Positions 13,522 to 63,747 are shown, counted from the first letter of the stretch. The stretch is 63,747 nt of DNA from Rhizaria sp. SCN 62-66 (GCA_001724265.1 MEDY01000142.1:1-63747); one strand, 5' to 3'. A program made the numbers and translations. Notes: generated by a model not told the origin, from the letters alone.

Positions 13522-16500
13522 ATGTCTGCGCCCGGGCCGCAGCCGCGGCCGACGGCGCTGTCGGTCAAGGCGCACGCGGACGCCCGCGCGCGTCTGCGGC
13601 ACCTGACGGAGCCGTGGCCGGGCAGCAAGCTCGCGGGCGACCTGGACTAGGCGCTGCTGGCCCACGCCGCCGCCTCGGCGGATCTGCTGCCCGACGCCAC
13701 GCGCGCCAAACTCCTGCTCACGCTGCCTTACCTTGCGCGCGCGCTGCGCAACCTGCTGCGCGGCCCTATCGAGACGCTGCTGCGCCGCTGCGCCGCCGTC
13801 GACACTGCGGCGGCGACAACGCCAGCGGCGGCAGCGACGCCTGCGGCCGCCGCCACACACACAGATGCGGCGGCGACGGGCGCTGCCTCTGCTTCTGCGA
13901 CTGCTGCGGACGGGCTGTCGTTTACAACGCTGTTCGCGTCCGCGCTGGCTTCGTTTCCGGAGACCGGTGCGCTCGCAGCCCCCGCCTCCGCTCCTGCCTC
14001 TGCCCCTGCGTCTGCGTCTGCGGCTGCTGACGCAGACGGCGACACGACTGCGAGCGCGAGTGCTGCCGCTGCTGCTGCTGCGGCGGCGGCGCTGACGGAC
14101 GACCTGTTTGCCTCGCTGCTTGCCGCCGCGACCGGCGATGCCCCCCTTAGCGCAGACGCGGCCGCAGACGCCGCAGACGCCGCCGAGGCCTCGACCTCTG
14201 GCTCTGCCTCTGGCTCTGGTTTCAAGCGATCGCTGCTGCTGCTGCCGTCGGTGGCGGGCCCGCAGCAGCGGCTCGCGCTCTCGACCGCCCAGCGCAGCGC
14301 GCTTTATATCAACAACAACAGTAGTAGCAGCAACAGCAGCGCCACTGCAAGCAGCAGTGCACGTGTTGCGAGCAAGCAGGAGCTCGGCGTCGCCGCCGCG
14401 CCAGTGTCTGCCGCCACCGCTGCTGCTGGATCTAGTGCCACGCCCTCCGCGCCCCCCGCGCCCGCGGCAGCGCCCGCGCCGCCCCGCCAGGCGTTCCTTG
14501 TGTCGTCGGCGCCGCGGCTGGCCCCGCTGCCACCCGGCGCGGCCGCCGCGGCTGCCGCGCCCGCGCCGTCGCTGGCGGCGGCCTTCCAGCCCGCGCGGCA
14601 GACCGCGCTGCTGTCGGCGCACGAGAGCGCGGCGGCTGGGCTCGCGTCGGCCGCGCAGCTCCGCGCCGCCGCGGCCGCGCAGCGCCGGCGCGCGCGCGAG
14701 ACGGAGCGGCTCATCGCGCGGCAGCAGAAGGAGCAGCAGCGCGCCGCGCGCAAGGCCGTCAAGCGGGCCGCCGAGGAGGACAGGGCGCGTAAGCGGGCCG
14801 CCGCTGCCGGCGACGATGATGACGCCGGCGACAGCGACGACCAGTGGGGCACCGACGACGACGACAGCGACGACGACGACACCGACAGCAGCGGCAGCAG
14901 CAGCAGTAGTGGTAGCAGCAGCAGCAGCAGCAGCGACAGCGACAGCGACGACGACAGCGGCAAGAGCAGCTCCAGCTCGAGCTCCAGCAGCGGCGGCAAG
15001 CGCGGCGGTGCTGCTCGCAAGCCGCGGCGGACGAAGGAGCAGCGCGCCGCCGCCGCCGCCGCTAAGGCTGCCGCCAAGGCTGCGGCGCGGGAGGCCAAGG
15101 CGGCCGCGCGCGCCGCCGCCGCCGCGACCAAGGCGGCCGCGCGCGAGGCTGCGGCGGCGGCGCGCGCCGCGGCCAGGGTCGGGCGCGTGACTGTGGCCGC
15201 GGACAAGGCCGCCGCGAAGGAGGCCGCGGCGGCGGCGCGCGCGGAGGCCGCCGCGGCCAAGGCCACCAAGGCCCGGGAGCGGGACGCGGCGCGCGCGGCC
15301 AAGGCGCTGGCCAGGGAGAACGCTGCGCGCGCGAAGCAGGGACTGCCCCCGCTGGCCGCGCTGCCCCCCGTCGTGGTCGACGCCGACGCCGCCGCCGACA
15401 CCGCCGCTGCTGCCGCGACCGCTGCGTCTGCGACCACTGGGCAGGTGAAGCGTCCCGCCGAGGCTGGCGATGCCCCTGCCGCTGCCACTGTCGCTGCGAC
15501 CGCGGAGGACGGTCAGGAGGAGGGCCAGCAAGCGAAGCGCCCCCGCCCCGCCGCCGCCGCCGCCAGAGTCAAGCAGGAACCCGGCACCGCCGCTGCTGAC
15601 GCGGCCGCTGGCACTGCTGGCGACGTGAAGGAGCAGGACGTGCAGCTGCCCGCGCTCGCGCCCTTCGCCGCGGCCGCACCGCTGCCTTCTGGCGCTGCTG
15701 GCGCTGGCGCTGACGCGGGCTCGACCGCAGCGCCGGCGGCCGCGGGCGGGCCGTCGTCGGCCGTGCTCGCCGCGCTGGCGGCCAAGCGCGCCGCCGTCGC
15801 CGCGGCCCGCGAGCGCAAGCAGGCCGAGGCAGACGCCGCGGCCGCCGCTGCTGCCGGCAGCCTTGATGTCGGCGCCATTGCAGTCAAGGTCGAGGCGCAG
15901 CTCGAGGCCCTGCCCGCGGCCACCGTGGGCGCGGCCGCGGCGCCCGTTGCGATGACGGATGACAGCAGCAGCAACGGGGATGCTGGCGCGAAGGCTGGTT
16001 CGACTGACACATATGCGTACACTTACCAGCCTGCTTATAACAGCAACAGCAGTAGCAGCAGCAGCGGCTATGGCGGCTACGGCGGCGCGTACGCGCCCGT
16101 GCGCGCTATCTGCGACAGCGACAGCGACAGCGACGGCGACGACGCCGCCGCTGGCGCCACCCGGGCCGCTGCCGCGCCGCCGCAGGCGAGCGTCCGGGAC
16201 CGCCCCACGCCTGCCGTCGCCGCCGCAGTGCCGGCGGCTGTTGCTGCGGCCCCGGCGGCTGTCGCTGCGACACCGGCGGGTCTGAGCCCCCCCGCAGACT
16301 CCGCTGCCTCTGTCACCTCGACAGGCACAGACACGGACGGCGCTGGTGCTGCTGCTGCTAGCGCGGACGCTGCGGGGACTGGCGAGCTGGCGGCGCTGCT
16401 GCCGCCGCCGCTGCTGGCGTCGCCGTCGTTCGCGCAGGGCCAGGCGGCGCTGGCGCAGGTGGCTGCCGCGACGGGCCGCAACGCGCTGACGCCAGAGAGC

Positions 16501-16800
16501 GAGGCGCTCGCCGCGGCCGCGCTGGCCGGCACGCTCGACGTCGCCGTCGCCGCCGGGCTCGCGCGCGCGGGGCGCCTGCCCGCGGGCGTCAGCGCCGTGG
16601 CCGGCAGTGACAGCGCCTTCGAGGTGGTGCTCAACCAGGCCTTCGTGGTCCGCGCGGAGGACGGGGCCGTGTTCGTCGAGAGCAAGTGCGTCGTCGTCGA
16701 CCTGGGGTCCGGCCAGTGGAAGACTGTGGCCCGCCGCAAGCGGACCAAGGACCCCGCCACTGTGGCAGCCGCGCTCGCGCAGCAGGGCGCGCCGCAGTGA
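13522..16800 (+). CDS. NELFA: Negative elongation factor A (NELF-A/WHSC2)-like protein; one in-frame TAG at 13648-13650
   Basis: One frame from ATG 13522 to TGA 16798-16800, interrupted only by TAG. N-terminus EPWPGSKLAGDLD*ALL..RAKLLLTLPYL..ASALASFPETGAL resembles NELF-A (KLKLLLGTLHL..ILKSFPDTGSL). C-terminus NALTPESEALAAAALAG..VVVDLGSGQWKTVARRK resembles NELF-A NKVTRPEKALILGFMAG..FEMNYATGQWTRFKK. Confidence 0.75.
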
Positions 16801-17596: not shown

Positions 17597-17638
<42 letters not shown>

Positions 17639-21771: not shown

Positions 21772-21803
<32 letters not shown>

Positions 21804-23677: not shown

Positions 23678-23717
<40 letters not shown>

Positions 23718-26588: not shown

Positions 26589-28734
26589 TCACTCGCCCTT
26601 GCTCTTCGTCACACTCCTGCCCTGCGACTGCTGCACCTGCTGGCCCTTGCGCTGCCGTAGCTCGCCCTGTTGCCCCGCGCCGGCGCCCGCAGCCTCAGCC
26701 TAAGCCGCAGCCACACTGACACTTGCCTTGCTCAGGGCCTTGTCTGCAGCCACGGCAGGAGATGCGCTCGCATTCGCGTCTGCGGCCGCGGCCGGCTTCG
26801 GCTTGGCGGCGCCCGGCAGCATAAAAACTGCCGCGCCGACAAAGACGCAGCAGGCGCCGGCCCAGTGCGCCGCCGTGAAGGGGCTGTCAAACACCAGCAC
26901 CGAGATGACCACCGACACAAACTTGCGCACCGTGATGGCCATCGTCGTCGCCGTCGCTGAGGACGCCGCGGTGAGCTGGTACACGCCCGACACGCAGAGA
27001 AACTGCGAGGACACGTTGAGGAGCAGCGCCAGCAGCGGCGACGCGCTCACGGTCACTGCCGCAGCGCCGCCGCCGCCGCCGCCCGCGGCCGCTACGGCAG
27101 GCGCGACGGTGACGGCGAGGGGCATGACCGCCTGAACCGTCGCTGCGGCGGCGGCGACAGGCGAGGCCCACAGCGTAGTGAGCCACGGGAGCGACGCCGA
27201 CGCAGCGGCGGCCGCGCCCGCAAGGGCGGCCAGGGGGCCGGCGGCGGCGGCGGACGCGGCCAGCGCAGCGGCGCAGGAGCCCTCCATGACGGTGGCCAGC
27301 GCACCGGTGTTGGCGCTCGCGGCGGCCGCAGCGGTCGCCACAGTCGCAGGGACTGCGGTAGCATAGCCGAGAGTGGAGAGCAGCGCGCCGCACGCGGTGG
27401 CGGCCCCCGCGGCCGTGGCTGTCGGCACAGCGACCGTGAGCGCCAGCGGGGCCAGCGGCGCCACGGCACCGGCCACCGCGCTGCCCACAGTCTCTGCAGC
27501 CGCACTGGCCACGCCCACGGTCGCGGTGCCCTCGGCTGCGGCCACGGCAGCGGCGGCAAAGTGCGCGTGCGCGTCGAGCCAGAGCGCGGCGTGGCGCGCG
27601 ATGGGCGCGGCAAAGAGCAGGAAGGCGGGCAGGTAGACGAGGTGCGAGTAGAGCAGCGATTCCGCGGAGGGCGGGCGGTGGCGGCGGGTGAAGTGCTGCT
27701 GCAGGTGGCCCAGGAAGGCCGACAGCAGCAGCGACACCACCAGCAGCGCGATGCCGACCGTGTACGCGTGACTGTTGCTGCTGGCGGCGGCGGCGTCGCT
27801 GGCACTGACGGCCGCTGTGGCGGTGGCACTGACTGTGGCATTGACGGCGCTGGCAACAGCGTCGGCGACCGCAGCCGCCGTGGGGGCGCCGACGCAGCCG
27901 GGGCACGATGGCAGCGGCACGCCCCCCGCCGCGGCCACAGCGGCAGCGGCGGCGGCGGCGCCCACACTGGCGGCGCGGGAGGCTGCGGTGTGCGCTGCGT
28001 CTGCGAGAGTGACAACGACGACGCCGACGGCGACGGCGACGCAGGCGAGCGACTGCGCCAGACTGTAGCGCTCGGTGAAGAAAAGGTAGCCCAGCAGCAG
28101 CGAGGCGGGGAGCGAGGATGAGCGGAACACAGTCTGCAGCGGCACCGAGATGCGGTAGTCAAAGACGACGTTGTTGATGATGGACTGGACGCCGAAGACG
28201 AGCGACAGCAGCGCATAGACGCCTAGCGGCATGCGGCGCGCGGGCAGCGACGGCAAGCCCAGGCGCGACCACAGCGACGGGGGCTGGAGCGGCGATGCAG
28301 TGACAGCAACGGCAGATGATGACTGCTGAGACCGTGCTTGCGACTGCGACTGCTGCGACTGAGATTGAGGCCAGATGAGCTGACCGAGGGCGGAGACAAT
28401 GATTACGGCAACAAACTGGAGCGCAGTCAACATGTGGCCGCAGCCAGGATCACGGCTGCACGCGGTAGAAGTGAGATAGAGAACGACATAGCGGGACATA
28501 GGAGAGTGAGCGATGATGATGATGATGGCAGAGGGGAGCGATATGCAAGACTCTGGATAGGGAGATACATACAGGCGTCACAGGAGATTAAACGTACCTG
28601 GTAATCATTTCAAGTGTCAAGACGTTAAGGCAGCATCCAACCATAATCTTGGTCACTGCAATGACGGCAGCAACGGTGTTTGTTGTGGTCGCCGGAGCTG
28701 CTGATGCAGCAGCCTTGGGTGCGGCGGACGACAT
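26589..28734 (-). CDS. SLC35B4/YEA4-like UDP-GlcNAc/UDP-xylose transporter; exons 28734-28598 and 28455-26589; in-frame TAG at 26700-26702
   Basis: Spliced join gives GCCLNVLTLEMITS|RDPGCGHMLTALQF. Further motifs NNVVFDYRISVPLQTVFRSSS, LLYSH, QFLCVSGVYQL, ITVRKFVSVVISV. Reading through the TAG ends at TGA 26589-26591 with ..TKSKGE, a KxKxx ER-retrieval motif. Confidence 0.85.
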
Positions 28735-30143: not shown

Positions 30144-33100
30144 ATGAACGAGCTCCTTCTTGACATTGCTCCGCCTCCTCCGGCATTGATAACAGCTGCT
30201 GCTGCAACGATCCCTGCTCATCAACGCACGCTAACAACATCGCCCGCCTTAACGCCTACCCCGCGCCCTGCCTTTACTTCAGCATCGGCGTCTGCGTCAG
30301 CGTCAGCGTCTGCGTCCCGCGGCAGCCTGTCGCTGACAGTGCTGGTGGGCTCCGAGCCCTTCCCGCTGGCGCTGCCGCCAGGCGCCACGGTCGGCGCCGC
30401 TGCGCGCGCCGTGTGCGAGGAGTGGGAGCGCCGTTATCCCGAGTCCGCCATCGCGCTCAGCGCGCTTCACGTCCTTTCTGGGGCCGCGAGAGCAGCTGAC
30501 ACTGGCACTGGCGCTGGCACTGGCGCTGGCGCTATGGCTGTTGTGGGAGCTCATGGCACTGGAGCACTGGGGGCAAGGCATGGGCCAGGGCAGGGGCCAG
30601 GGGGATACCACGGGAGAGATAGGACGAAGGCCAGTCGTGCTACACCAGCAGTCACAACAACTGAGTTGCACCCAGACGATGTGCTCTATCACGTACGTTC
30701 GCCAATCTTACACGAGACTTGGTGTGATAGGCTCAACTTGAAGGAAACATATTTTTTCATGGATTTAATACTTTATTCTGCTCTTGCGTTGTTCAGTCGT
30801 TCATGTATTCTTTTTTTGTGTGAATTCCATGCACTCACGAACATCACGCGTAGGTCATCGCTGACGGCGCAGTGCTCAGAGCGACCTTGCACTCTCCATT
30901 CCACGCTCAGCAACAATAGCAGCAACAACAACAATATCAGCAACATCACCAAAGTCAGCACAGACCGCAGCTCCACGCCCCGTTGCCGGCGCAGCCGCCC
31001 GCCGCAGCGCCGTCGCAGTCTCCCGCCTTGTCGCAGCCGCCCGCACTGTCGCAGCCGCCGTGGCTGCGGCCGGGGGACGTGCTCCGCGGGCACCTGCTAC
31101 TCTCGTTGCTTGGCCGCGGCGCCTCGGGGGACGTCTTTGCCGCGCGCGACCTCACCTTGCACCGAGAGGTAGCGCTCAAAGTCCTCCGCCCGCCGCGCTG
31201 GCGCAAAGGCGTTGCTGTCGGTCATGCTGGAGCTGCTGCTGCTGGTGGTGGTGCGCAGGCTGCTGGTGCGCAGGCTGCTGGTGCGCAGGCTGCTGGTGCG
31301 CAGGCTGCTGGTGCGCAGGGTGCCCAGGCGCAAGCCGACTCGGGGGAGGATGAGGCGCGGCTCGTGCGGCGCTTCCTGCGCGAGGCGCGCGTAACCGCGC
31401 AGCTGTCGCCGTGCCCCTACATCGTCACCGTCCACGGCTTCGGCCGCGCGCGCTCCGGCGAGCTCTTCATGGCGCTCGAGCGCCTCCGCGGCCGCGCGCT
31501 CGACGAGTTGCTCGCAGAGCGCATTGACGCGGCGCGCCCCTTCGCGCCGCTGGAGCTGGTGTACCTCGCGCTGCCCGTGCTGAAAGGACTCGTACGTAGT
31601 TGCACTGCTCGATATTGTGATGTCAGGATATTGTGGTGTCTGGTTTTTGTGTTGAAAACTTTATCGTGTCTCATGTACTCATGCCATTGTTTTTCTTTTC
31701 TGCCGCGATTGATCCCGACCTCTCGCGTGCGCAGATGTGGGCGCACGGGTGCTCGCCGCCAGTCGTGCACCGCGACCTGAAGCCAGAGAACGTGTGGGTC
31801 AACGCCGTGGCAGACGACCGCGAGGGCCGCCTCATGCTGACCAAGATCATGGACTTCGGGATCGCGCTCACGCTGAGCCCGCCGCCGCAGGACCAGGACG
31901 AGCTGTTATTGCAGGGGCAGGCACAGGCGCCACAGCAACAGTCCCAGCAGCCACAGCAGCAGGTCAGCGATGGCTCTGGCTCTGGCTCTGGTTCTCGCAG
32001 TGGTAGTGGTAACAGCGGTCGTAATGGCAATGGCAGCGGCAGCGGCGGCGGCAGCGGTGGTGGCAGCGGCAGCGGCCCACGGTACCGACACCTGGTAGGT
32101 ACACGGGGTTACTGCGCGCCTGAGCAGGCATGGGCTCCGTATCTGCACGCAATGCAACAACAACAGCTATTGCAACAGCAACAACAACAGCAAGAACAGG
32201 CTGGGCGGTCTGTGTCTGTATCTGTGCCTGCGTCGGCGTCAGCCTCGGCACCCGTGGCCACCGTGGACGCACGCGCGGACCTGTGGAGCGTGGGCGCAGT
32301 GTTATTCCAGCTCGCAGCGCTGGCGGAGACGCTGCCGTTTGACTCGCTCGCGCTCGCCAGACAGCTCCACGAGTACAACAACTCGCAACGGAGCGCTGCG
32401 CCGGCCGGGTCTGGCATCGCGGGCTCCGGCGGCTCTGGGGTCGGCGCTGCCCGCCCTATCGGAACCGGGGGCGCGGCTGGCAGTGCGGGCGCTGGCGGCA
32501 CTGGGGGCGCGGCGAGGGGGGGTGGACTGCGGAGGCCGCAGGCGCCGTCCGTCGTGGACCACATGGCGGGACCGGTACGCACTTTGATATCTGAAGATAT
32601 GCGCAATTCTTATTTACTATAAGTTGAACTAAACATTTTTGGGGCATTTTTTTGACCAGAATGTTTGTTTTAGTTGTTGTGTTTTGTAATAGTGTAAGAA
32701 ACCTCTCCTCACTGTAACACCCTTTGCCTTGCCATTTCACAACCCATAGCTGCCCGCATCTCTGTGCAGTCTCATCGACTGCGCGCTTAGCGTTGACCGC
32801 GCGGGCCGCTTTCCCACCGCAGCCGCAATGGCGCACGCACTTGAGCGCATTGAAGCAGGTCCGTTTTGTCACACATGAGTAGTCACACAAACAGATGACG
32901 ATGATATGAAAAGTTTTAGTGAGATATGACTGAGCTGTATTGTAAGCTCTCAAACTTTAACAAGCAACGAGAAAACATAAAAAATATACGCGACACTCAC
33001 ATATGCGCTTGCTTATCATGTTTTGTGTTTCAACGCGTTTAGAGTTGCTATCAGATCCGGCGACTGCGGCCACGCGTCTTGACTTCGCTGCTATGGCACG

Positions 33101-36777: not shown

Positions 36778-36828
<51 letters not shown>

Positions 36829-46725: not shown

Positions 46726-48789
46726 ATGTCCGCAGTCACTCTCCACGAGCCCCCTGGCGCACTTCGCCCAAGTATCGACAGCAGCGGCAGCGACATAAGC
46801 GACGATGATGCCCTTGCGCGCGAGTCTGCGCGCGAGTCTCGCCGTCTGAACGCGCCGCTGACCGAGGCCGGGTTCGAGCTGTTCGCAGGGCTGCTGCAAG
46901 CATTGGTGGACAAGGACGAGGACGCGCTCAAGTCGCTACTGGAGAGCGCATTTCCGGACTCCGAGGACACTGACGACGATGTTGATAACGACAAGGAAAG
47001 CGACCGTGGCTGTAACGTCGATAGTGACTTCGCCAGTCGCAGCAATGTTGTCAGCAACAATCCTATCCAGAGGAACACAAGCTCTGCCATTCTCTCTCGC
47101 ACGGCAGAAACGGCTGCGGTGCTTTCTGCCTCTACCAAGCCGCTGGGCCGCTGCGCCACGCGCGTGTTGACCGCTTGCCTCGTGGTCGCGGCGCGGCTGC
47201 GGCTGACCGGCGCCGCAAGCCAGCTGGTCAAGTACGGCGCCTCGCTCTCCGCCTCTGTCACGGGGCTGTTCACACACGTTCACCGCTGCGCCAGCCAACG
47301 CTGCGCCAGCCACCGCTGCGCCAGCGCGGTTTGCTGCCGGGAGCGCTCACAACCGCACCAGCATCAGCCTAGCACAGGGCCCGGCGACTGTCGGCCGCTG
47401 TGGCGGTGCGGGCGGCGGGGGCCGGGACTGACTGCGCTGCACGCGGCGTTGCTGGCACACGACGTGGCGCTGGCGACAATGCTCGTGCAGCACGGCTCGG
47501 ACGCGCGCACGCCTATCGTGCATAACGCCGCGGTGAAGCGCGACGCAGAACACACAGACAATGATACTTGTGGTGGCGAGCGCTGTTGCGGCGACTGTAT
47601 GGGTGCGTGCGAGCGCCAGTGCCAGTGCGAATGCGGGTGTGAGTTGTGTGCTGTTTTGAATTGGAATGATTCTTTCAATAATAACCACATCATTACGAAT
47701 AATGATGACGACGTGAGCAGTAGCATTAGTTTCAGTGACAAAACGCGCATGTTGACAGCCAGCACTTATTGCAGCACGATTACAGGCAGCACAGTCCCGA
47801 CACTAGTGCTTGCAGCTTTGGTGCGTGCGCGCGTTGAGTACAGCTGGGACTGTGAACATACTTCCGGATTAAACCAGGGTGCTGGTGGCTTGTCGTTAGA
47901 TAGTGAAAGCGATGTTCTATTTCCATTTTATGCTCCGCTCTCAGGTACTTCCACAATCGCTCATCGCTACGGAGAGAACCCCTTCAGCACTTATAGTTAT
48001 ACCTCCAAGGCCACCATTATCTCCCCAGCAACTATTATCAGCAACAATAACAAAAACATCAAGACAAACGAGACTGCAACCTGTGACGAGGATGGAAGCG
48101 GTGATGATCACAACGGCTCCAATCAGGTCGACGAAGACGGGAGTGATGACGAAGACTATTACCTTGACGAGGGCAGTAACGCTGGCAGCAATGGGGGCCA
48201 TAGTGACGACAGCGAAAGCAGCGATGCCGACGCAGACACCGAGTCCGACCCGGTTTCCCCGCCACTGCTGTCCCCGCTGCTGCTCGCTATCGCGCACCGC
48301 GCGTAGCACCGCGCCTCGGCCGCGCACCTGCTGCATTGGGCCGCGCGCGAGGACGACGCCGAGCTCATCGCGGAGCTGCTGGCCGGCGCGCGCGGCCGCT
48401 GGCGCAGGCACGGCGAGAGCGTGCGCAGACGCAGGCGGCTGCTGCGGATCAAGCTCAAGCGACATGCTACACGGCAGCAAAAACAATCACTGACCCATAA
48501 TCGCGAGGTTGATGATGACGCGTCTCTGGCAAGCGACTCTAGAGACGGCTTAGGTCTTCGTCACGCGGCTCGACCGGGGTACTCGCTCAACGAGGACGGC
48601 GGCACCGCACTGCACGCGGCGGCCGCGGCGGGCGCAGTGGCCGCGATCACCGCGCTGTGCATGGGCATGGGCGGCCGGCGGGGCCAGGGCAAGCGGGTGT
48701 CGTTTGCGGCGGCGGACTACTGGCGCGAGAGTGCCAAGAGGAAGGCTAATGTGACGGCAAAGGCCGTTAACAACGCGAACCCGGAGTGA
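46726..48789 (+). CDS. Ankyrin-repeat protein with Cys-rich and acidic inserts; in-frame TAG at 48304-48306
   Basis: ANK motifs GLTALHAALLAHDVALATMLVQHGSD before the TAG, and LLHWAAREDDAELIAELL and GGTALHAAAAAGAVAAITAL after it in the same frame. TGA at 48787-48789. Confidence 0.65.
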
Positions 48790-49401: not shown

Positions 49402-51073
49402 ATGTCGGCCCCGTTTACGTACACCTTGTTTCACGAGGCGCTTACCGACTTAATGGCGCCGACAACACCATTCACTGGAATTCAAAAGCTGTTGGATATA
49501 ATCCAGTCTTCCACGTATCACAATACCAAGAAGTACTTGAGGACGTTCACTGCAGCATGTCTCGAACTCGGTGTGATTGACTTGCTTGTGCGCTCACTCG
49601 AGTATTCGCCAGATGAAATCAGGTCCATTCGCAAGAAGGAGACATTCAGCGTCTTCATTCTGCTGACTGACACGTCCGAGGGTCGCACCGCTCTGCTCAC
49701 GAATCCCAGCGTAATTGCGACTTTATGCTCTGCAATTCGTCCAGGCCAGCCCATCAAAGTTGTCAGGAGTGCCCTTTGGCTACTGGGTCGACTGGCCATC
49801 AAGGGCCGCGCAACCGTCGACCTGCTGGTTGAGCACGGCGTGTTCGCCCGCCTATGCTGGTACACTGCGGAAGTCTTTGGGGGTGTTGTCCAGGTTCACG
49901 TAGAGGTTCTCGAAGCCCTCATGTCAACAGTGAACAAGTTCGCTGGCGTGTATCCACTGTTGCCATACGACGTCTTGGCGCCAATGGTCCCACCACTCGA
50001 CCTTGCGCTACGTAACATCCCGAGGACCCAAGGCTACGACAATGTGCTTCAAAATACGCTGCTGTCACTGTCGCATATTTTTTCTAACAATTACGACTAC
50101 GTACGGTTTGACGACCTTGTTTATGGAGGCGAAAATAGCATCTTTCACAACGCGATCAAGCGTATGTTTGTGGACGATACGAACTCCTCGCCCGTGGTGG
50201 GCCTTATCCAATCGGTTGGTGCGCTGAGTGAAGGCATTCCCGAGCTCGCGTTCACGCCTTTCGTTCTCGGACATATGCACCGATTTGCGCTGTCCGTGGA
50301 CTTTGATGAGTGCCCTCATGATTTTCAGACGATTGTGTCAACGATGTCAAACCTGATGAACAAGAGTCCCGAAATGCTGTTCCGCGTAATTGCATCTAAC
50401 GTACTTCATGCTCTAATTTCCCGCGCGCCCGTGCGTATGTATCATGGGGTGGTAAGCATGCTAGAGGTTGCTACTATAAATGTCGACAATGACTAGACAC
50501 GACTGACCGTTGCTTCAGCTTTTCTTGAGTCCGACGCCTTGCGTTGCTGCGTGCAGACTCTCCACGGTGGTCTAGAGTTAGACCGGCCTAAGACGTGCAA
50601 AGTGCTTTGGTTTGCGATAGAAGCCGGTGGTACAGATGCCGACTTTGCAGCGCTTGCGTGGGGTGAGCCGAGCAATGTGTTTCTGGCAGCCTTTTTTGCA
50701 ACAGGCGGTTGGTACGCTCTTGTGAATAATATGCACAGCAAACCGAGGTGCGTTGATGCATTAGCGCTGCGCAAAGCTCATTATAGATATCGTTGGTTGC
50801 ATTGCCGATGATTACGGACCGTTGCCGAGGCACAGGTACGAGGACGAATTCGGGGACGAGGACGAAGACTGGGATGATGATGACGAGAGCGGTGCCGATG
50901 ACGAAGACATCGCCTTCGATGATGAATACGAAGGCGACGACTCCAACTTCGAGGGCACTTATGGAGCCGACGAAGATGAAGTTGAGGATGATGACTCAAA
51001 AAGCGAGGAATACCTCGAAATCGAGGAGTATATCGATTATGATGAGGAAGATGACGAAGATGGAGCATTTTGA
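49402..51073 (+). CDS. Divergent importin-alpha-like ARM-repeat protein lacking an IBB domain, with an acidic tail; in-frame TAG at 50494-50496, apparent +1 frameshift near 50740 and a second TAG at 50762-50764 (may be a pseudogene or an assembly error)
   Basis: VVRSALWLLGRLAIKGRATVDLLVEHGV and PLLPYDVLAPMVPPL..VLQNTLLSLSHI follow the importin-alpha ARM pattern. The frame continues past the TAG to NVFLAAFFATGGWYALVNNMHS. The next frame gives MH*RCAKLIIDIV plus a D/E-rich tail to TGA 51071-51073. Confidence 0.6.
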
Positions 51074-51831: not shown

Positions 51832-52540
51832 TTACTCCGGCCAAGTCCTGATGAACACCGCGTTGTTCTCGACCAGCTCCATGTCGATGGGGTGCGCGGC
51901 AGCCCTGCGCCGCTTGGCCTCTGGCGCGCACACGGTGCCCGCGGCCGCCTCCGCCGCGGCCTCCTCGGCCGTGGGGTCAGCCAGGTCCCAGGGCAGCGCG
52001 GACTCGACCGCGCCGGACTCGGCGTCCACCGACACGCCGTAGACGGCTGCCAGCGGCGCGAAGGGCGAGACGATGGAGCGCGGCCAGACGCGCGGCGCGC
52101 TGCCGGCCGCGAGCGCGGGCACGCGCAGACTCGCGGCCGTCGCGGCAGCCGCGGCGCGGGCGGCAGAGAGCGACTCGCTGTACACGGCGGCCACAACGGA
52201 CGCGGTGTTCGCGCTGGCGTTCGCGGTCAGCACGGAGGAGCTGTGCTTCAGACTGTTCTTCGCGGCGTCCTTGTCCTTGTCAGTGTCCTTGTCCGTGTCG
52301 CTAGCGCGCGTGTTCGCGTACGCGTTGTTGGCGTCGACGACGGTGACGGGCATCGCGGCGGCGCTAGTGTGGTCGAGACTGAAGCTCGAGTTGCCGTGGA
52401 CGTTGCCGTTGCCGTTGGTGTTGGCAGGCGCCGTCTTGAGCGCCATCAACTCGACGCTGGCGCCGGTCTCACCTGCATTCGCGCGCACGCTGGCCTTGCT
52501 CTTGGTCTTGGCGGCGCGCGCCGCGGCGGCAGCAGCAGCA

Positions 52541-52571
<31 letters not shown>

Positions 52572-55500
52572 GCGACTGCACGGTGAGCACGTGGTGCCGC
52601 GTGCTAGCATTGACATCGCGCGCGTCGTGGCGGCGCTGCCGCTGCGCGCCGCGGCCGCGGGCCGAGGGCGGGAAGCAGAGCGTGCGCAGCCAGTTGCGGC
52701 AGCAGCCGCGCGAGTGTGGCGCGCCCAGGGGGAAGGCCTATTTGAGGTACTCCGCCGTGGTGACACCTTGGAGAGTGAGAGCGGGAGAGAGAGAGAGAAA
52801 ACAATGAGATATGGGGGTAATTATAAAACTCGATGGTAACTATAAAACTCGCTGCACAAATATCAACGTTTTTACATCAAAACATCGATAACACCGAGTT
52901 AAAGCATGCTATAGCAAGTTCGCTTTGCGTACCCTTGATAGAGAGGTTGACGTGGAAGCCTGTGAGCCAGCCCACGAGCACGGCTGCGCAGAGCGCGAAG
53001 ATGGCGATGAGCAGCGACAGCGGATTGCGCGCGAGCGCGGAGCCCACGCCGCGCGCCAGCGAGGTGCCGTCGCGGTCGGCGAAGTGCTGGCCGACCTGGA
53101 CCAGCGAGTAGAGGCTGGTGCCGACGACGAAGAGCACAAGCAGCGAGAGGATGTAGAGGAACAAGGTGAAGGAGCGGTAGTTGCGGCGGCCGATGCACGT
53201 GCCCACCCACGGGCAGTCTATGACGTCGCAACATCGTAAAGGCAAGACAAGCGAGGCTAAGGAAAGAAAGAGTGAGTTTGCGTAATAAAACAAGAAATAC
53301 AGATGCCATGGTCAGATAAGAAAGCACATTGTTTCATTGTAAAAAATCATTTGAGTTGTTTGGAACGTACGGTGGTCGAAGCCTTCGACGCAGTTGTTGC
53401 AGATGTTGCAGTGCATGGAGCGCGGCGGGCGGTAGATTTTGCACGTGTCGCAGAACTTGAGCCGCGTGACCATGCCGCCCGTCACAACGTCCTGCCAGCG
53501 CTGCGGGTGCGCGGCGTAGATGAGCGGCCGCGCGGGGTCTTCGCTGGCGGCGCGCAGGCCTTCCTCCTCCGCAGCCAGTCGCAGCGCTGGCGGCAGATCC
53601 CAGTACTTGACCACCGACACGGTCTTGACGCCGCTCACGGCCACCGCGCCTGCCTTGGCCGCAGCCTTCGCGTTCGCCGCTGCCGCCGCATTGGCATTCG
53701 CGGTGGTGGCGGCGGTGGCGGCTGCGGTGGCGGCGGCGACGGAGACGGAGATGGCGCGGGCAACAAGCGCGTTGTTTCTGGGGTGGCTGTGAGCCGGGTA
53801 GTAGCGCTGGCCCGCCGCCCCAGCCGCCACGCCGTCAACGTGGACGCCGGCGTTGACGTTGTTGTACTGCGCGTCGAGGTGTGCGTGCGCGGGCGGGGGA
53901 CCCGTGGGCACGCGTTCCAAGTCGAGCCCCATGCCGAGCCCCTCGTGCGCCAGCAGTACGCTGGCGTCGGTGCACACGTCCAGCGCTCCGCCCGCGCCCC
54001 CGTAGCCCGCCAGCGCCAGAGCGGCGTCGGCGGCCGCGTCCGCGTCGGTCTCGAGCGTCACGGACACGACGGGCACGCCGTGCTTGCGCACGTCCGCGGC
54101 CGCGACGGCCATCATGAGCAGCGGCTGTTGCACCATGAGCACGGGGTGGCGCGGCACCACGCCCGGGTCCGAAAAGGCCGTCGCCGTCAACGTCCACAGC
54201 GCGCCGACCAGCAGCACGGCCGCCACAACCCAGGCCCAGGCGCCCGCGCCGGAGCCGCCATCGGTGAAGGCGTTGACGTCGCGGGCCGGGAAGGCCATGA
54301 AGAGCGCCCAAGGCACGAGGATCAACGCGTACGTCTGCGCGACCTTGCCGGGCTGCGAGCCGCCGAAGAGGCGCCCGTCACAGTAGAAGTTGTTGCGGCC
54401 TGGGAAGTGCTGCCACTGGCGCGAAAGCACCGGCAGCGACGCGCCCGAGGCGAGCGCGTCGTCGGCGTCGCCGTTGCCGTGGGCCCCCGCCGCGCCATCG
54501 CCGCTGCAGTCGCAGTTACCGTAGTCGTCGTGGTCGTGTCCGTGTCCGTGCCTGTGTCTGTTGTTGTGGCCGTGGCCGTGGTGCCCGGTGCCCAACAGCA
54601 GACTGCTGCGGCGCGAGCGGTCGACAGACTCGATGTTTGAGACTGTGGGCGGCAGGTCCTCCGGCTCGGTTAAGTCGCCGCCGTCGTCGAAGCCGTGGTC
54701 GTGACCGTGGCCGTAGCTACGGCTGTGGGGGTCGAGACCGGCGAGGTCGTCGTCGTCCTCGTTGTCATCCTCGTTGTTGTCCCTGTTGTTGTCACCGCGA
54801 TCATCGTCATCGTCATCGTGTTTGTGGGCGTGGTTGCTGCTCTTGGGATGATGGAAGTTGATCGCTGTGCGGGCGTTGTGAGCCTCACTGTCGTCTTCAT
54901 TGTCGTTGGTGGCAGACTCGGTATTGTGATTGTTGAAGCTGCTTTGGTTGCTGCTCATGTTGGTGCTGCCCGTATAGTTGTTCGGGTACCGGGTCGGCGG
55001 ACTGCAGTCGCCGTCGCCATCGGAGCTTAAGCCGCCCCCCACAGAAGGTAAGCCGCCGCCGCTGCGGGGCGACGCAACAGTCGCCGTCGCCGCCAACGCA
55101 AGCGCAATGTCGCGCGCGCTGACCGCATCGTCAGCGTTCGCGTCGCTGCTTGGCGGTTGCTGCTGCTGCTGCGGTTGCTGCGGTTGCTTTGTGCGCACCC
55201 GCACAGGCCGGACGCGCACCACGGTCGCCACGCCCGCATCAGCGGCTTTGTTGCTGTTGTTGTTACTGTCTGCGAGGTCGGTGGGGTCGAAGCCCCCGAA
55301 GCTGTCACTGCGACTCTGACTGTGGTTGTGACTGTGATCTTGCTGCTCACAGTCACTCTCTTGCTGCTGCTGCTGCTGCTGCTCGCGGTCGCTCGGCTGG
55401 CGCTCTGGCTCGAAGTCGCCACTGCCCAGCTTGCTACCGTGCAGCCCCCGGTCACTCTTGTGCTCGCGATCGCTCTTGGTCTCGCGGTCGCGACTGTGGC

Positions 55501-56857
55501 TGTGCGACTTTTCGTACTTATTGATGTTGTTAGCACTCTTAGCGTGATTACTGCCTTCATCCTCAGAGGACGAAAACTCAAACAGCTTCGCACCCGTGAC
55601 CGCGCGCGACGAAAACCGCGCCTTGGTGGCCGGGCTGGTCACACCGGCAGCGGCGGCCGCAGCGGCAGCGCTATTTGCACCGGCGTTGGCGCTGGCGTTG
55701 GCGCTGAGGCTGCCGCGGGCGCTTGACGACGACGGTACTGCGTTGTTGCTGTTGCTGTTGCGGGCGCTGCTGCTCGCAACGACATTCGTGTTGCTGTTGT
55801 TGTTGTTGTTGCTATCACTATCGGGAGGCAAAGCAGGGCCAGCGACGGTCACAGCGCCAGCGGCGTCGTTAGCGCCAGAGTTGGCGTTTGACGCGCTATT
55901 ACTTGCTGAAGCGGCGGCGGCGGCGGCGGCTGCAAGCGCCAGCGTCAGTCCCGAGGGGCCTTCGTTGACGCCGGCACTGGCGTAGCGCGAGCTGGCTTCG
56001 GCGTCGATGCTGGTGAGATCAGTGCTGCTGCTGCTGCTGTTGTCGTGCGCGTTGCAGTCCGCTGCCGCTCTCTCAGCGTGGCCGTAGCCGTGCGCGTGCG
56101 CGTGCGGATGTGCGTTGCCGGGGCAGGGGAACGGGGCGCCGCTCGGCAGCAGCAACAGCGTCGCAGTCGCGTTCCCGTGGCCCAGACCGTGGCCGTGACC
56201 GTGGGCAACAGTGGCAGCGGCCGCAGTCGCGGGGAGGCCAGCACCAGCGCCGGACTGTTCGTGCTCATGCTCGCGGTCGTGTTCTGCGGCGGTGGCGGCG
56301 GCCAGTGCGGAGGCCGCGGGCGCGGGCGAAAATGTCGGTGGCGACGCAGACACAGTCGCTAGGAGCGGCGCGGGCTGGATGTCGACCACCAGCGAGCTGC
56401 TCTCATTCCGCAGCGTGTTCGTGTTGTTGTTGCTACTGATGTTGTTGTTTGCATTGGGGTTAGCGCTGTAGGCGAGGATGTGCGTGTGCAGCGCGTGGGC
56501 GTTACTGTGTGCGTGCGCGTGTGTGTGCGCGTTCGTATGCGCGATCGGCGAGAGCGGGCACGGCGGCACGCCATCGCGCGACTCAATCGTCGTCGCTGTT
56601 GTCGGTGCCGCAGTCGCAGTCGCCGCGGCAGCGTCTCTCGCGCCCAGTCTGGTCGCGGTCGCAGCCACTGCAGACGCCGCATCGGACTCTGATGCCACGG
56701 TGGCGTCCGCAGCGTCCGCGGCGGCGGCGGCGGCGGCCGACTCGGCGGACTCGGCGAGCAGGAGCTCTGCGGCGGCGCTGGGCGGTAGCGCGGCGAGGCG
56801 TGCGCGGATGGACGCCGACATCGCGGCCAGGTCAACCGCGGGCGGCTGCTCGCTCAT
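51832..56857 (-). CDS. DHHC palmitoyltransferase (ERF2/ZDHHC9-like); exons 56857-53371, 53217-52933, 52766-51832; in-frame TAG at 52738-52740
   Basis: WQHFPGRNNFYCDGRL, SDPGVVPR, KFCDTCKIYRPPRSMHCNICNNCVEGFDH|HCPWVGTCIGRRNYR (an intron splits DHHC), GVTTAEYLK*AFPLGAPHSRGCCRNWLRTLC. TAA stop. Confidence 0.92.
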
Positions 56858-57968
56858 AAGGATACAAAGCGACGCAAGCCAGAGCGGGAGCGCAGTCGCG
56901 GGGGCTGGGGCAGGCGCGGGGGCGCGGGGCGGGCGGGGTTAGGCCGAGCCAGAGAGGCTTCGCGAGAGAGGGATTGCGAGGAGAGGGCTTGCTGCGGACT
57001 CGGGGAGAAGCAGATTGGGCCAGCACACGCTATAAAGCGGGGGCCGGTAAAGAAAAAAGCGAGTGAACGCCACAAAGAGGGCGCGGGCGCGCTGGGGAGC
57101 GAAATGAGGATGCCGGAGCAGGGCGGAACAGCGCTAACGGTGAGCGGAGGGACGGTGCTGACGGGCTTAGAGAGGGAGCGATTTGTGAAGCATAACGAGC
57201 AGCTCAAGGGACTTATTTAAGTTATTAGATTTTAATCAACGAGGAAATTACAATATACAAGCACAGGAGATGCTGTCGTTCGTTTTGTGCCGCTCGTAGC
57301 CTCGTTCACTGGCCCGACCCCCCGCCCCACCGCCACCGCCACTGCCACCAGTCGACCGACGCTGGTCAGATCGCACCGAGAAGACTGAGGGAGAACATAC
57401 ACTTTAGGACACGATATGTAAGCAAAGAAGATAGATTGTGAAGATAATAACAACAGTCTAAGTTATGCCACATTGTATAGAGCGTTATTTTGTTTGTACT
57501 TGGAGTATTGTAGATTTATACCGCAACGATTCGTTGAGCTAAGAGATTGTGACTCTACTTGTGCAAAGATTCTTGTATTCTTGTGTTTTTGTGGTCGTTT
57601 TTTGCCTGTTTGTTTGCTCGTCACTGGCAGTTACTATACTTCCACGACACAAACAGGTGTAAATGAATGACTATAGACATCAGGCGTGATGACAACAACA
57701 ATGTACGCGCCAGCAGCAACAAAGATTTGTTGTTCCGGCGGTTACGGTATTGTTGCAACCACTCTGTGTCAAAACTGTGTAACATTGCGTAACACAAGCA
57801 CAGAAACGCACCCAACTCATTGTGTGCGGTTGCTATGTCATGCTACATCTTATATCCCCCTTTCTAACCTCCTGTGAGTCCTCCGAGCCGCTATAAACTG
57901 TGCCCAGAACTCCTTAACTACTCTTACTCTTTGCCTCACATGTGGCTTCGCGCATTGATTGCGTTTCC

Positions 57969-59319: not shown

Positions 59320-61713
59320 TCATTGCGCTGCCGGCTCAGCCTCGGCCTCGGTCGCCGCCTCAGCCTCAGCCTCGGCCTCAGCTTTGCGCGCTGCCCTCGC
59401 TCGGCCGACGCTCTGCCACAGCCGCGTTTGTAGGCGTCTACAATTAGCATAGGTCACAGTAAGTCAAGTACACAAAACAGTCATATTCGCGTCGGTGAGC
59501 ATTGGTAATCGGAGCAAGTGCAAAGCGCAAACTGTAGCGCGACGACGGTTCAGTGAAATGAGGGATACAATAGAGGATATATAGCGTTATTTGAAGACGT
59601 ACGTGCAGATAGCTGCGATCTTCTCCTCAATGCGCAGCTCCTCGAGCGGCGCGATCTCCCTGTCGAGCCACTTGGCAAACTCGGCCATCTGCGCGGGCTT
59701 CTTGCCCAGCTGCCGCAGCCAGCCGGCGCGCACCATGTCCCGCTGCGCGCGCGAGAGGCTGCCGCGCGCCTCGGGGCACAGCATCAACACGCGCTCCAGT
59801 GTCGCGGCGAGGCGCGCGCTCGCGCCCAGGGGACTGTACAGCCCCAGCCACGGCTGCTGCACGCGGCCGGCAACGCTCGCGACAGAGCCTGGAGCAGCTG
59901 TCGCATTATCAGTCACAGTGATAGCGTGCGCGGCGGCGTTGCCGGCGAGCGCGCGCGTGGCGGCCGCGGCGACTGCGCCGTGCGCTGGCACGTACACAAG
60001 CCTGCTCGCGGCGGCGAGGTAGGGCAGTGGCGGCGTCGGCAAGTCGGCGACGACGAGCGCAACCAGAGGCGGGAAGCCCATGAGCGACGAGAACGACGGG
60101 TCGGAGGCCGCGAGGGCGGCGATGGACACAGCACTGTCGACTGTTGCAGCAGAAGCAGCAGCCGAAAACGTGTCAGTAGCATCGTGAGTGGGGTCAAGGG
60201 CAGCGTTGCTGTCGCCGATACCATTGCTCTCACTGTTTGAGTTTGAGTTAGAGTTCGTGTTTGTGCTGTTGATGGCTGCCGTGAGGGCGGCGGCGACGGG
60301 GGCGAAGTCGAACACGTTCTCACACGGGGCCGCTACAGCGAGCAGGGAGCTACTGCTGCTGTCAGAGCTTGCATTTGCAGGAACACAGTTATTAGCGCTG
60401 TTGCCTGTCGCAGGAGCGGGGCCGACAGGAACAGTGTTGACGCTGTTGCTCATGCTTGCGCCTTCAAGAGCAATGCTGGAGTCTAGCCCCGCGGTGGCCG
60501 CGGCCCAGTCAAGAGCAAAGAACGACGCCGACGACTGCGACTCGGGCTGGGATTGCGTGTTTGCGGAGGCTGATGCAGAGGCAGATGCAGAGTTTGAGGA
60601 TGAGACAGCGGCCGGGGCGGAGACCGCAGAGACGAAGGGCTGCGGCGCGGCGGCAGCGGCGGCGCGCGCCCTGACCCACTCGGCCACCGCGGCCACAAGC
60701 CGCGCACGGGGGCACTCGCTGTCAGCACTTACACTTGCAGGCGCATCAACAGTCGTAGTTACCGGCGCCTTCGCTGGCGCAGGCGCAGCAGTGGAGCCGT
60801 CGCACTTGCTGTTGTAACTGGCCAGAGCGGTGGCGAGGGCAACGGAGTGCGGGACAATCGAGCTGATGCTGCCCACGCCACCAATCTCAGTGCACGCACC
60901 CACACCACACTCGCCCCCGTCACTGTTCGCGCTCTCGCCCGCGCTAGTGCTCGAGCTGTGGCTTTGACTGGGTGTGAGAGTTGGAGGCCGGTGGTTGTGA
61001 GAGCCGAAGAACAGAGGGTCGAGCGGTAGCGGCACCAGCCAGCGGCCTGGGAGCTCCTCACCAGCACTCGCGCCGCCAGCGCTCCCAGCGGCCGCGCTCG
61101 CGCTCACACTAGAGTCACTCACGGTGTCCACAGCGGCGCCGGCATCCTGGCCGTCGCGGGGCACACTCTTGCTCTTGCTGGTGTTGAACTTTGCAATGGC
61201 GCTGTCGATCGAGGGCCCCGGCGGCAGGTACACGCACTGCGGGCCTGCGCCGAGAGCCCAGACCTCGGCCCCAAGCTCCTTGGCAGCGGCGACGCACTCG
61301 AGAACCGTGTCGAAGTGCCGCACAGTGACCCAGTTGCGGCTGCCTTTGACGACCTTGTGCGACACGCGCTTGTTCGCGCGCTCGACCCGCGGCGCGACGG
61401 CAAAGACGTACTGGATGCCGAGGCTCTCGGCCGTGCGGATCATCGCCTGCTGGTGCAGGGAGCCCATGAGGCCGTCGAGAATGAGGATCAGGCGGCCGGA
61501 GCGGTTGCGCAGCACCGTCTCAGCGCGGCGCAGGCGGCGCGGGGCGTCGGTCGGGGCGAACCCGGGCGCATAGCCGTCCGCGGGGGCAAGCTGCGCGTCG
61601 GCTGTGTCGGAGGGGGAAGGGTATGCGCTGTCGCGGGGCTTTTTAGATGCAGCGCAGGCCGGCGCAGCAGGGGAAGCCGGAGCTGCGGGCTGAGTCTGAG
61701 CGGTGGGCTGCAT
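59320..61713 (-). CDS. SpoU/TrmH-family RNA methyltransferase-like protein with a large insertion; exons 61713-59603 and 59437-59320
   Basis: RRLRRAETVLRNRSGRLILILDG..AMIRTAESLGIQYVFAV..KGSRNWVTVRHF; distal half VALVVA..AASRLVYVPAHG..LCPEARGSLS. Intron GTACGT..GCTAATTGTAG. TGA stop. Confidence 0.75.
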
Positions 61714-62166
61714 AGTCGGCCACACCTGATAGTCACAATATTCCAGAGTGCGAATAAAGGGAAAGAAAGTGACAAAGTAAGAGATGTGCCAATGTGCTGT
61801 TAAATTTCGTGCTGACGATCAGAATATCGCTAGGTTGAGGTGCCGCGATAGGTGCTCATGGCTTCAACCGCAACTCGCCGACGCTGGCTCACGTTAGTAG
61901 GTCGTTGGGTGCCGTTTCTCTGTGGATTTCCTGTGAGAGAGTCCCTTTATGTAAAATCTCGCGCGTAACATGATACTATCCTCTCCTCTCCAACCTCAAT
62001 GATAAGGCGAAAATTGATATTTTGCGCGCTCTCTTGGAGCCTCACATCACCAATCCCACAACCCCGCCAGCCCCGCCCGTCTTCCTGATTCACTGTTCCC
62101 TTGCGATATCATTTTTCACCGCCTTGTTAACCTCTGTTCCTCAGCGTCACGTGTACCGTGTGACCA

Positions 62167-63747
62167 ATGAGCGGCAGGAACTTGCACAGTTCGCTCCCAG
62201 CGAAGCTGGCGAGCCGAGTGCGGGGGCCTCATCAACAGCGTGACAAGAATGCTTCATCTGCTGATGACGTCAACAACTCTACTAGTGGCAACAACGGCCG
62301 CAGCAGCCATACACCGCGTATCAGGAGGTTTTTGCCACAGGACGACGACGACTCCACAAAATAGCGCAACAACATTGTCAGCCAGTCCCGCTACCCCAAG
62401 CCGAACACCAACATTAAGCCGTATGCTGTTGGCGCCGGCGACGCTTGTCATGGTCGCAAAAGGCTGGGTCCTCATCATAAGGCGTTGCATGACTCTGACC
62501 CTGACTCGGATGAATCAGACTCAGACTCTGGTGCTGGCGCTGCCGACTCACAGCCTCGCTCTCGCTCTGGCGTTGGCTCGGAAATCACCGCCACTGTAAA
62601 GCGTCCCCGCCCTGCCCCAATCACTACCGCTCGGCCCGAGTCGCAAATCGTGGTGTTGGCCAGGGCAAACGTCGACCTTGCAGAGAAGACTCTCCTCGCG
62701 AGCCAGACTGCGATTACAAACGCGTCGACTACGTCGGAGATCGAACGGCTACGAAGTCTGGCCCAGGTTGCTTCAGCCTAGTATGCGAGGTAGAGGGCTG
62801 AGCTCCATAAGGTGGTGGCCCAGGACAAGCTCAATCTGGCTAAGGAAGCTGTTGAGCGTGTGATGACGCTTATGACTGCTGCAAGTGCTGCTGCGGCCAA
62901 CGAAGCAATGGCTAAACTTGTTGCTGACCAAGCTGTAGCTGAAGCTCAAGTTAAGAAGGCTGAAGACAATCTTAGGAGGGCTTACTCTGAAGTCACGGTT
63001 GCGCAGGCTCGCGTGTCTGTAGCTAAAGCTCAAGATTCCTTTAGCAGGGCTTATGACCGTGTGAACGAGCTGGAATCTAGCCTCGTGCTAAATAATGCCG
63101 AGTCAGTGAAGAAGTTGAATGTGGCTCAGGATCTGCTCTAGGCTGCCAGGGCTAATGTGAGGACGGCCAATAATGATCTTGAGGTAACTCTTGAGCGAGC
63201 TCAGGCGGCGGAGGGTAAAACTGCTCAGGCGGCGGAGGATAAAGCTGCGAAGGCGGCGCAGGATAAAGCTGCGATGGCGGCGGAGGATAAAGCTGCTAAG
63301 ACAGTTAAGGCTACCAATGCGGCAGTCAATGACAAAGATGCAGTTTTCGAAGCTCAAGCGAGGCTTTGGAAGTATCTCAAAAGTGATCACGTCGCTCAGC
63401 ACGTGCTTACTAAAGAGCTTTCGCATGTGCGGATGACCACTATCCCCAATGACGCGCGCTGGTTTTTCACCGGTAAAAGCTCTTCGTGGCACACTCTCGT
63501 GACTCGGAAAAAGTACGATGACGTATACAGGCTGGTAATGCGCAAGTTCTCGCTCAACATTGCCGCTAAGGCGTCTCGCACAGCTCCGGCTTCTTTATGT
63601 AACGCGATCGTTTTGATTGGGCCTGCTGGCACTGGCAAAACGTCGTCGCTGAACAAACTGGTGTTGCTCGCTGCGGAGATGGGTAACGTGAACGTGGTCT
63701 GCCAACACGGTCGTCAGCCGGAGGCACTTGTGCTCGGCTGTCGTGGC
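62167..63747 (+). CDS. Coiled-coil plus P-loop NTPase protein (Crinkler/RHS-type NTPase-like), 3'-truncated; four in-frame TAGs at 62362, 62779, 62791 and 63139
   Basis: A single frame of 527 codons with no TAA or TGA. After the last TAG: LVTRKKYDDVYRLV..NAIVLIGPAGTGKTSSL (Walker A). Confidence 0.75.
63199..63294 (+). repeat. 24-bp imperfect coding tandem repeat x4 (AQAAEGKT/AQAAEDKA/AKAAQDKA/AMAAEDKA)
   Basis: Directly visible; the unit is approximately GCTCAGGCGGCGGAGGATAAAGCT. Confidence 0.85.

Follow-up and report, generated by a model that had tools for sequence, protein, structure and literature searches.

Contig MEDY01000142.1 (GCA_001724265.1, deposited as Rhizaria sp. SCN 62-66), analysed here over its whole length of 63,747 nucleotides and referred to below as the window, carries eukaryotic genes in which TAG recurs within otherwise open reading frames. 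Judging from the sequence, we consider it probable that TAG is translated in this eukaryote (rough probability 0.78), meaning that cytosolic translation would decode UAG as an amino acid and would terminate at UAA and UGA only, as in codes of the NCBI table 15 type. The evidence consists of predicted coding frames that stay open, coding composition and homologous motifs, all of which are seen downstream of TAG both in a diverged relative and in several genes unrelated to one another. By analogy with known codes in which UAG alone has been reassigned, a tRNA with the anticodon CUA would read UAG but not UAA, and an eRF1 with weakened recognition of UAG would let such a tRNA(CUA) compete. A scan of the window found no tRNA genes, an Rfam scan of the window gave no match, and an eRF1 gene is not among the window genes.

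In-frame TAG triplets and the behaviour of the three stops

Ten TAGs had been firmly listed in an initial examination of the DNA made without database searches (the sequence-only reading), at positions 13648(+), 26700-26702(-), 30917(+), 48304(+), 50494(+), 52738-52740(-), 62362, 62779, 62791 and 63139(+). All ten were found to lie in frame with long open reading frames (ORFs) free of TAA and TGA, whereas a further TAG at 50762, which had been given as probable, is out of frame with the ORF 49330-50811 according to its sequence context and was dropped. As had been claimed, the ten sites are spread over seven different genes, identified through Pfam as a low-complexity Ala-rich gene, a UAA-family sugar transporter, a spliced protein kinase, an ankyrin-repeat gene, an ARM-like gene, a DHHC palmitoyltransferase, and a coiled-coil plus STAND NTPase gene. 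TAG as a codon is rare, amounting to ~10 occurrences in roughly 15,000-16,000 codons by a rough sum of the gene models.

Inspection of the terminators revealed that none is TAG and that an internal TAA or TGA is required by no gene model built, both in line with what had been proposed; the present count is 18 visible 3' ends (TAA 9, TGA 9), against the 19 (8 TAA and 11 TGA) given before. The suggestion that the genes without an internal TAG form an unbiased sample holds only in part, as the argument is partly circular: a gene truly ending in TAG would be scored as a gene with an internal TAG. If the code were standard, TAG would be the terminator of 3 of 18 genes (transporter, ankyrin and ARM-like), which is an unremarkable share. 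At the terminal TAA and TGA codons, GC comes next in 10/18 cases and G occupies the +4 position in 11/18 (e.g. 7674, 17194, 25960, 40809), which suggests a preferred termination context; at the ten in-frame TAGs the +4 base is G in four, C in three, A in two and T in one.

Because of this circularity, a first-stop test was applied that treats the three stops alike. For 19 gene models, the length of the frame and the guanine-cytosine (GC) content of 120 nt were measured after the first in-frame stop. When this stop was TAA or TGA (12 genes), the frame closed again within 3-44 codons and the GC of the next 120 nt was 0.36-0.62, whereas after TAG (7 genes) the frame stayed open for 36-1049 more codons and the corresponding GC was 0.55-0.82. 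Both differences were significant in a Mann-Whitney comparison (open length, p=0.00056; GC, p=0.00075), and the test supports the TAGs as internal codons. A codon-usage score, for which seven conserved genes served as the training set, pointed in the same direction: downstream of the TAG, its frame still scored best at all of the 10 sites but one, the polyglutamine (poly-Q) site 30917, while after terminal TAA or TGA the same frame was usually not the best. Counting, in all six frames, how many ORF pairs each type of stop joins was also tried and turned out to be uninformative, because chance ORFs are abundant in GC-rich DNA.

Under the standard code the TAGs would have mixed ordinary causes, acting as terminators in the transporter, ankyrin and ARM-like genes, as a splice acceptor in the kinase gene, and as nonsense lesions in the STAND, ARM-like, DHHC and low-complexity genes, which would then be dispensable or dying. 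This explanation can draw on the abundance of CAG, GAG, AAG and TCG codons, which makes TAG the commonest nonsense product, on the fact that TAG often ends confirmed introns, and on the normal share of TAG terminators mentioned above. However, it requires at least 4 of 19 neighbouring genes to be nonsense mutants, yet the frames remain open for 138-1049 codons with coding composition kept. We rank it low and consider it improbable, because it calls for many nonsense mutants with open, coding-like and homologous downstream frames in which the lesion is only ever TAG.

Assembly or sequencing error, or a correction at the mRNA level by editing (e.g. U to C) or by splicing out of the TAGs, can hardly account for the pattern. 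Over 50152-52019 and 52581-53439, contigs of a run from another study (X3) proved identical to the window, which confirms the TAGs 50494 and 52738. A strain diverged by ~1% (X4, piece 49419-50918) retains TAG 50494 as well, none of its 15 differences falling at 50494-50496. These two are the TAG sites bridged by pieces from other studies among the matches listed, and the RNA contigs cover no TAG site. The caveat raised at the outset, that C-to-T errors could have created the TAGs, is thus answered for two sites by independent assemblies and, beyond these, by two TAG positions common to the window and a related contig from an independent metagenome (L001, see below). Concerning splicing, no GTACGT or GTACGC 5' splice site is present near 48304, 50494 or the TAGs of the STAND gene, and editing at the TAG sites is unlikely.

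Coding sequence and homology beyond TAG

The ankyrin-repeat gene (46726..48789, + strand) contains TAG 48304-48306, followed by 160 codons up to the TGA at 48787 and by a GC content of 0.80 in the next 120 nt. When the 160 residues after the TAG were searched alone, matches were obtained to Ank and Ank_3 (E 7e-4, residues 8-28) and to Ank_2 (residues 94-118); these are the best ankyrin matches of the gene and lie in the same frame, yet all remain under the Pfam cut-offs. The segment has no Met until near its end and offers no usable start of its own. If TAG were a terminator here, ankyrin repeats would fall within the 3' untranslated region while being in frame with the ORF, which argues against the standard code. 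An AlphaFold2 prediction of the segment across the TAG, run on a single sequence, gave a poor model with long helices (predicted local distance difference test (pLDDT) 62.6, predicted template modelling score (pTM) 0.32) and was uninformative. Immediately past the TGA (48787), this frame remains open for another 137 codons (48790-49200, + strand; AT-rich, ~42% GC, no Met), and the opposite strand (48550-49242, - strand) holds a 231-codon ORF free of TAA and TGA with 3 TAGs. A Pfam search of these two ORFs gave no match; they may have arisen by chance, represent a small antisense gene or have another origin.

The DHHC palmitoyltransferase gene (51832..56938, - strand) is composed of three exons (exon 1 to 53372, exon 2 53217-52933, exon 3 52766-51835) and stops at TAA, with one intron splitting the DHHC motif and a second intron after it. 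TAG 52738-52740 forms codon 9 of exon 3 and is located between a TTxE-like motif and a Cys-Cys-x-Asn...Leu-Cys motif. Exon 2 aligns with residues 169-247 of ZDHHC9 (E 6e-7) and residues 134-184 of ZDHHC5, and exon 3 alone, searched against the whole PDB, found residues 217-258 of ZDHHC5 as its sole match, with the TAG opposite Gly and an E-value of 0.18, which is weak for this alignment on its own. Exons 2 and 3 are colinear with human ZDHHC5 and ZDHHC9. With TAG as a stop, the conserved C-terminal motif of the DHHC protein would go untranslated, a further point against the standard code. The use of TAG 52738 as a splice acceptor was rejected, as the frame would shift and both DHHC motifs would be lost.

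The low-complexity Ala/Ser/Asp-rich gene (13522..16800, + strand) starts at ATG 13522, carries TAG 13648-13650 as codon 43 and stops at TGA 16798. Its ATG is the only one before codon 839 of the ORF and precedes the TAG by 42 codons; 1049 codons follow the TAG, and the next ATG is found 768 codons past it. The sequence is GC-rich and codon-like on both sides of the TAG, with a coding score of 0.2 before and 0.5 after it, compared with -0.6 to -0.8 in the other frames. An intron over TAG 13648 starting from the GTACGT at 13449 was considered and rejected, since no exon carrying an ATG is available in phase further upstream and the composition of this stretch is GC-rich and codon-like. Regarding the family of this gene, Pfam and PDB gave no match and an Atlas look-up of the C-terminus returned bacterial hypothetical clusters only; an assignment to NELF-A was considered, was unsupported by the Pfam and PDB searches and was dropped. 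The antisense frame (13369-16845, - strand), which is Arg/Gly-rich, contains 0 TAG, TAA or TGA between 13522 and 16797 and is taken as a shadow of GC-rich repeats.

The largest number of TAGs occurs in the gene for a coiled-coil protein with a STAND P-loop NTPase (62167..63747, + strand), which runs off the window. Over 528 in-frame codons at ~55% GC it contains 4 TAG (62362, 62779, 62791 and 63139), 0 TAA and 0 TGA, while the five other frames over the gene hold 25 TAG, 36 TAA and 65 TGA. When the STAND protein was searched against 1.84 billion representatives, three fragments were returned (P0010, P0011 and P0012). P0011 is 92% identical (phmmer) and ends exactly before TAG position 63139, and P0010 is 78% identical and reads through this position with Thr; such short STAND-family fragments in public protein sets are consistent with truncated gene calls. 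A metagenome scan with the STAND protein itself gave no relative, and a scan with P0012 yielded L001 as the sole relative, a contig of 1083 nt.

Analysis of L001 revealed one frame that runs open through its entire length of 361 codons, of which 5 are TAG and none is TAA or TGA. The identity to the STAND gene of the window is 73% over 282 aligned codons. The TAGs 62779 and 63139 are common to both, and 4 TAGs are private, of which 62791 in the window faces CAC and those of L001 face GAC, AAG and TCG. The L001 TAG at residue 198 falls within a Pfam nSTAND5 match (residues 191-268), and 5 of 5 indels between the two genes are in frame. Compared with the codons for Gln, the STAND gene has 4 TAG, 14 CAG and 7 CAA, and L001 has 5 TAG, 8 CAG and 9 CAA. 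The standard code has difficulty with these copies, which together hold 9 in-frame TAGs and 0 TAA/TGA, have two TAG positions in common and retain the frame at every indel, as expected of an ORF that is maintained. On the other hand, the family evolves in a nearly neutral manner, with a ratio of non-synonymous to synonymous substitution rates (dN/dS) of 0.89 overall (coiled coil, 1.09; NTPase part, 0.52), and a neutral simulation at the divergence of the pair gave 1.6 expected new TAA/TGA, with none in 19% of cases (P=0.19). TAG was the commonest new stop in this simulation (TAG 1.5, TAA 1.12, TGA 0.52), and this result as well as the dN/dS near 1 would suit the standard code. Because the lack of new TAA or TGA is expected 19% of the time under neutrality, the sequence comparison of the pair is supportive and not decisive alone. 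With its coiled coil at a dN/dS of ~1.1, large in-frame indels and a more conserved NTPase part, the gene resembles fast-evolving nucleotide-binding leucine-rich repeat (NLR)-like genes.

Sites with ordinary alternatives, opposing evidence and the encoded residue

For three of the ten TAGs an ordinary alternative exists, namely a terminator at 26700, a splice acceptor at 30917 and a position in a decaying gene at 50494. In the last exon of the UAA-family nucleotide-sugar transporter gene (26589..28577, - strand), TAG 26700-26702 lies 39 codons past the end of the Pfam match and is followed by 36 further codons to the TGA at 26589-26591, and it could be a true terminator. The 120 nt after this TAG have a GC of 0.70 and are codon-like, and the composition becomes T-rich only after the TGA; a switch at TGA and not at TAG speaks against the standard code at this site. 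The spliced protein-kinase gene (30144..32622, + strand; intron 30693-30853, GTACGT...TAG) has its TAG 30917-30919 within a CAG/CAA run, giving QQQ-TAG-QQQQQ, and its intron could end at this TAG instead with phase 0 kept. In the leader of the CYFIP gene, at 2331, a CAG/CAA run is likewise interrupted by TAG, before the first ATG, which places such TAG-interrupted repeats outside coding sequence too.

The ARM-like gene (49402..50811, + strand) contains TAG 50494-50496, followed by 104 codons to TGA. Comparison with strain X4 revealed 15 changes, 5 synonymous and 10 non-synonymous, together with two 1-nt deletions (49897 and 50773), and the gene looks decayed and under relaxed constraint, as the standard code would have it for a gene that carries a nonsense lesion. 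The deletion at 50773 was also seen in a poly-A RNA contig and would carry the ARM-like ORF past the TGA of the window.

These three sites, the weak exon-3 alignment of the DHHC gene and the near-neutral evolution of the STAND family all weigh against a translated TAG, and further observations have to be added on the same side. The seven most conserved genes contain 0 TAG in 7,295 codons, compared with 294 CAG and 14 CAA, a result that favours the standard code. TAG is confined to genes that have a lower GC content at third codon positions (GC3), evolve faster or are of low complexity, as would be expected of tolerated nonsense lesions; no consistent amino acid stands opposite TAG; and the sample comprises one 64-kb contig and 1 kb from a relative.

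The uneven distribution of TAG, with 0 in 7,295 conserved codons against 4 in the STAND gene and 5 in L001, is also what might be seen if UAG were ambiguous or leaky, that is, still partly seen by eRF1 and read through in weakly expressed genes by a suppressor tRNA or a near-cognate such as tRNA-Gln, as an intermediate stage. Site 30917, with its Q-TAG-Q context, would suit this explanation, given that a 2026 yeast preprint reports Gln insertion at premature stops promoted by a Q-stop-Q context (PMC13192750). However, a Gln-flanked stop of the QXQ type described in that preprint (PMC13192750) is found at 1 of the 10 TAGs, 30917, which does not match context-driven readthrough; the other 9 lack Gln-rich flanks and the +4 bases vary. 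Furthermore, a gene with 4-5 leaky stops would give almost no full-length product unless decoding were efficient, and a code of the Condylostoma or Blastocrithidia type would predict some TAG terminators, compared with 0 in the 18 genes, a small sample, while the avoidance of TAG in conserved genes is compatible with partial termination. Overall, we regard leaky UAG as unlikely.

For a UAG that is translated, its rarity and its avoidance in the most conserved and most GC3-biased genes suggest either recent capture or inefficient decoding. A tentative scenario, to which we would give somewhat less than even odds, is an independent and young capture of UAG in a GC-rich, non-ciliate lineage, in which UAG has disappeared as a terminator and has come back as a codon in weakly constrained genes only, with conserved, highly biased genes still free of it.

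With regard to the encoded residue, the sequence-only reading had proposed that TAG is translated, probably as Gln, with TAA and TGA as terminators; translation and the two terminators are supported by the present analysis, while the Gln identity is not borne out, as the residues opposite TAG are never Q. In relatives these residues are H, D, K, S, T and G over 6 columns, all of them in variable regions. BLOSUM62 sums over five columns were 4 for Ser, 2 each for Lys and Glu, 0 for Gln, -7 for Tyr, -12 for Leu and -14 for Trp, so that the columns favour polar residues and disfavour Leu, Trp and Tyr without singling out Gln. The lone Gln-like hint is the poly-Q site 30917, which may equally be a 3' splice acceptor. 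We conclude that the encoded residue is probably polar. By analogy with precedent, and in view of the poly-Q context, Gln would be the likeliest choice, at roughly even odds, and it could be a different amino acid.

Gene content, source organism and comparison with known codes

The GC content across the window ranges from 51 to 74%. Eukaryotic genes were identified on both strands (Pfam), including a START-domain gene, CYFIP, a LigB dioxygenase, a CFAP97-like gene, MCM, RRP12, the UAA-family transporter, two protein kinases, CBF5/dyskerin, and the ankyrin gene, and further on the ARM-like gene, the DHHC palmitoyltransferase, a SpoU-like gene and the coiled-coil plus STAND NTPase gene. The genes are long and intron-poor, and the contig is compact and gene-dense. 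Confirmed introns are ~150-175 nt long and AT-rich, with GTACGT or GTACGC as 5' sites and a TAG acceptor in some. Introns were placed at 30693-30853, 43338-43512, 52767-52932 and 53218-53371, the second of these by reading of ORFs only, and TAG acceptors end the introns at 30851-30853 and, again by reading of ORFs, at 43510-43512. Two islands of lower GC (46000-52000 and 57000-63747; ~50-60% compared with 65-74% elsewhere) are where the ankyrin, ARM-like and STAND genes lie, all of them fast-evolving. When viral contigs were scanned with the proteins of the STAND and ARM-like genes, no relative was obtained, so that a viral origin of the lower-GC genes gains no support.

The stretch was recovered from bioreactor and wastewater metagenome runs of several studies, and a small share of it also from a poly-A metatranscriptome; the source is an uncultured, GC-rich eukaryote from wastewater metagenomes. 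A search with CBF5 gave a metagenome protein as the best match (83% identity), followed by matches of 62-77% identity from fungi, plants, green algae and a cryptophyte, by which the lineage is not fixed, and an Atlas look-up of CBF5 gave no taxonomic signal. A search with CYFIP found, besides the protein of the window itself, three relatives at 36-47% identity.

A translated UAG would have practical consequences, as standard gene callers would truncate or split genes of this organism. If the young capture outlined above were true, it would bear on codon-capture versus ambiguous-intermediate models. A usage of UAG this low and uneven could give a view of reassignment at an intermediate stage. 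With so high a GC content, the loss of UAG terminators would not stem from AT mutation pressure; a further UAG-only case in a GC-rich genome would be an independent data point on why UAG is captured alone and would challenge AT-pressure explanations. No matching case was listed when the literature was searched for eukaryotes of activated sludge, or similar protists, that read UAG as sense.

Nuclear codes that separate UAG from UAA are rare, and those described include a rhizarian, Iotanema, Scotinosphaera, Protocruzia and some phyllopharyngean ciliates (PMC11687900, PMC5304391). In the fornicate Iotanema spirale, UAG encodes Gln and translation stops at UAA and UGA (Panek et al. 2017, PMC5304391), and UAG was described at conserved Gln columns in many genes along with a T32G change in eRF1 (PMC5304391). 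The window resembles this system in a UAG-only sense codon that was inferred for a non-ciliate eukaryote from in-frame UAG and terminator usage, and it differs in that UAG is rare and missing from the most conserved genes, the DNA is GC-rich and the opposite residues are mixed. For the rhizarian exLh (Sainouroidea), UAG was reported as Leu on the basis of 384 in-frame UAGs in 71 genes at conserved Leu positions (PMC5304391). Common to both are the restriction to UAG, termination at UAA and UGA and the discovery in mixed-organism sequence data; unlike in the account of exLh, the residues opposite TAG are polar here, with Leu scoring worst or near worst (-12 to -16), and the usage of UAG is far lower.

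In phyllopharyngean ciliates, Protocruzia and Scotinosphaera, UAG stands for Leu, Gln or Ser (McGowan et al. 2024, PMC11687900), with Ser in Scotinosphaera (PMC11687900). That work, which uses metagenome-assembled genomes, describes repeated independent capture of UAG and proposes tRNA(CUA) as the reason why UAA is unaffected (PMC11687900). The UAG-capturing phyllopharyngean ciliates carry UAG in 78-91% of genes at 27-54% GC (PMC11687900), whereas 7 of 19 genes contain UAG here, at a GC of 51-74%, and the long, intron-poor genes with low-complexity tracts are not ciliate-like when set beside that description. Amoeboaphelidium protococcarum, in which UAG and UAA both encode Gln (cited in PMC5304391, PMC6299283 and PMC11687900), is likewise a non-ciliate microbial eukaryote with UAG as sense; in contrast to what is cited for it, TAA ends 9 of 18 genes in the window and is never found in frame. 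A code in which both UAA and UAG encode Gln (table 6 type; ciliates, Hexamita, Amoeboaphelidium) was rejected, as there are 0 in-frame TAA and as the frame closes and the GC drops after TAA. Taken together, the sequence pattern probably fits the UAG-only class (NCBI table 15 type), from whose known members the organism would be set apart by its GC content and by a very low and skewed usage of UAG.

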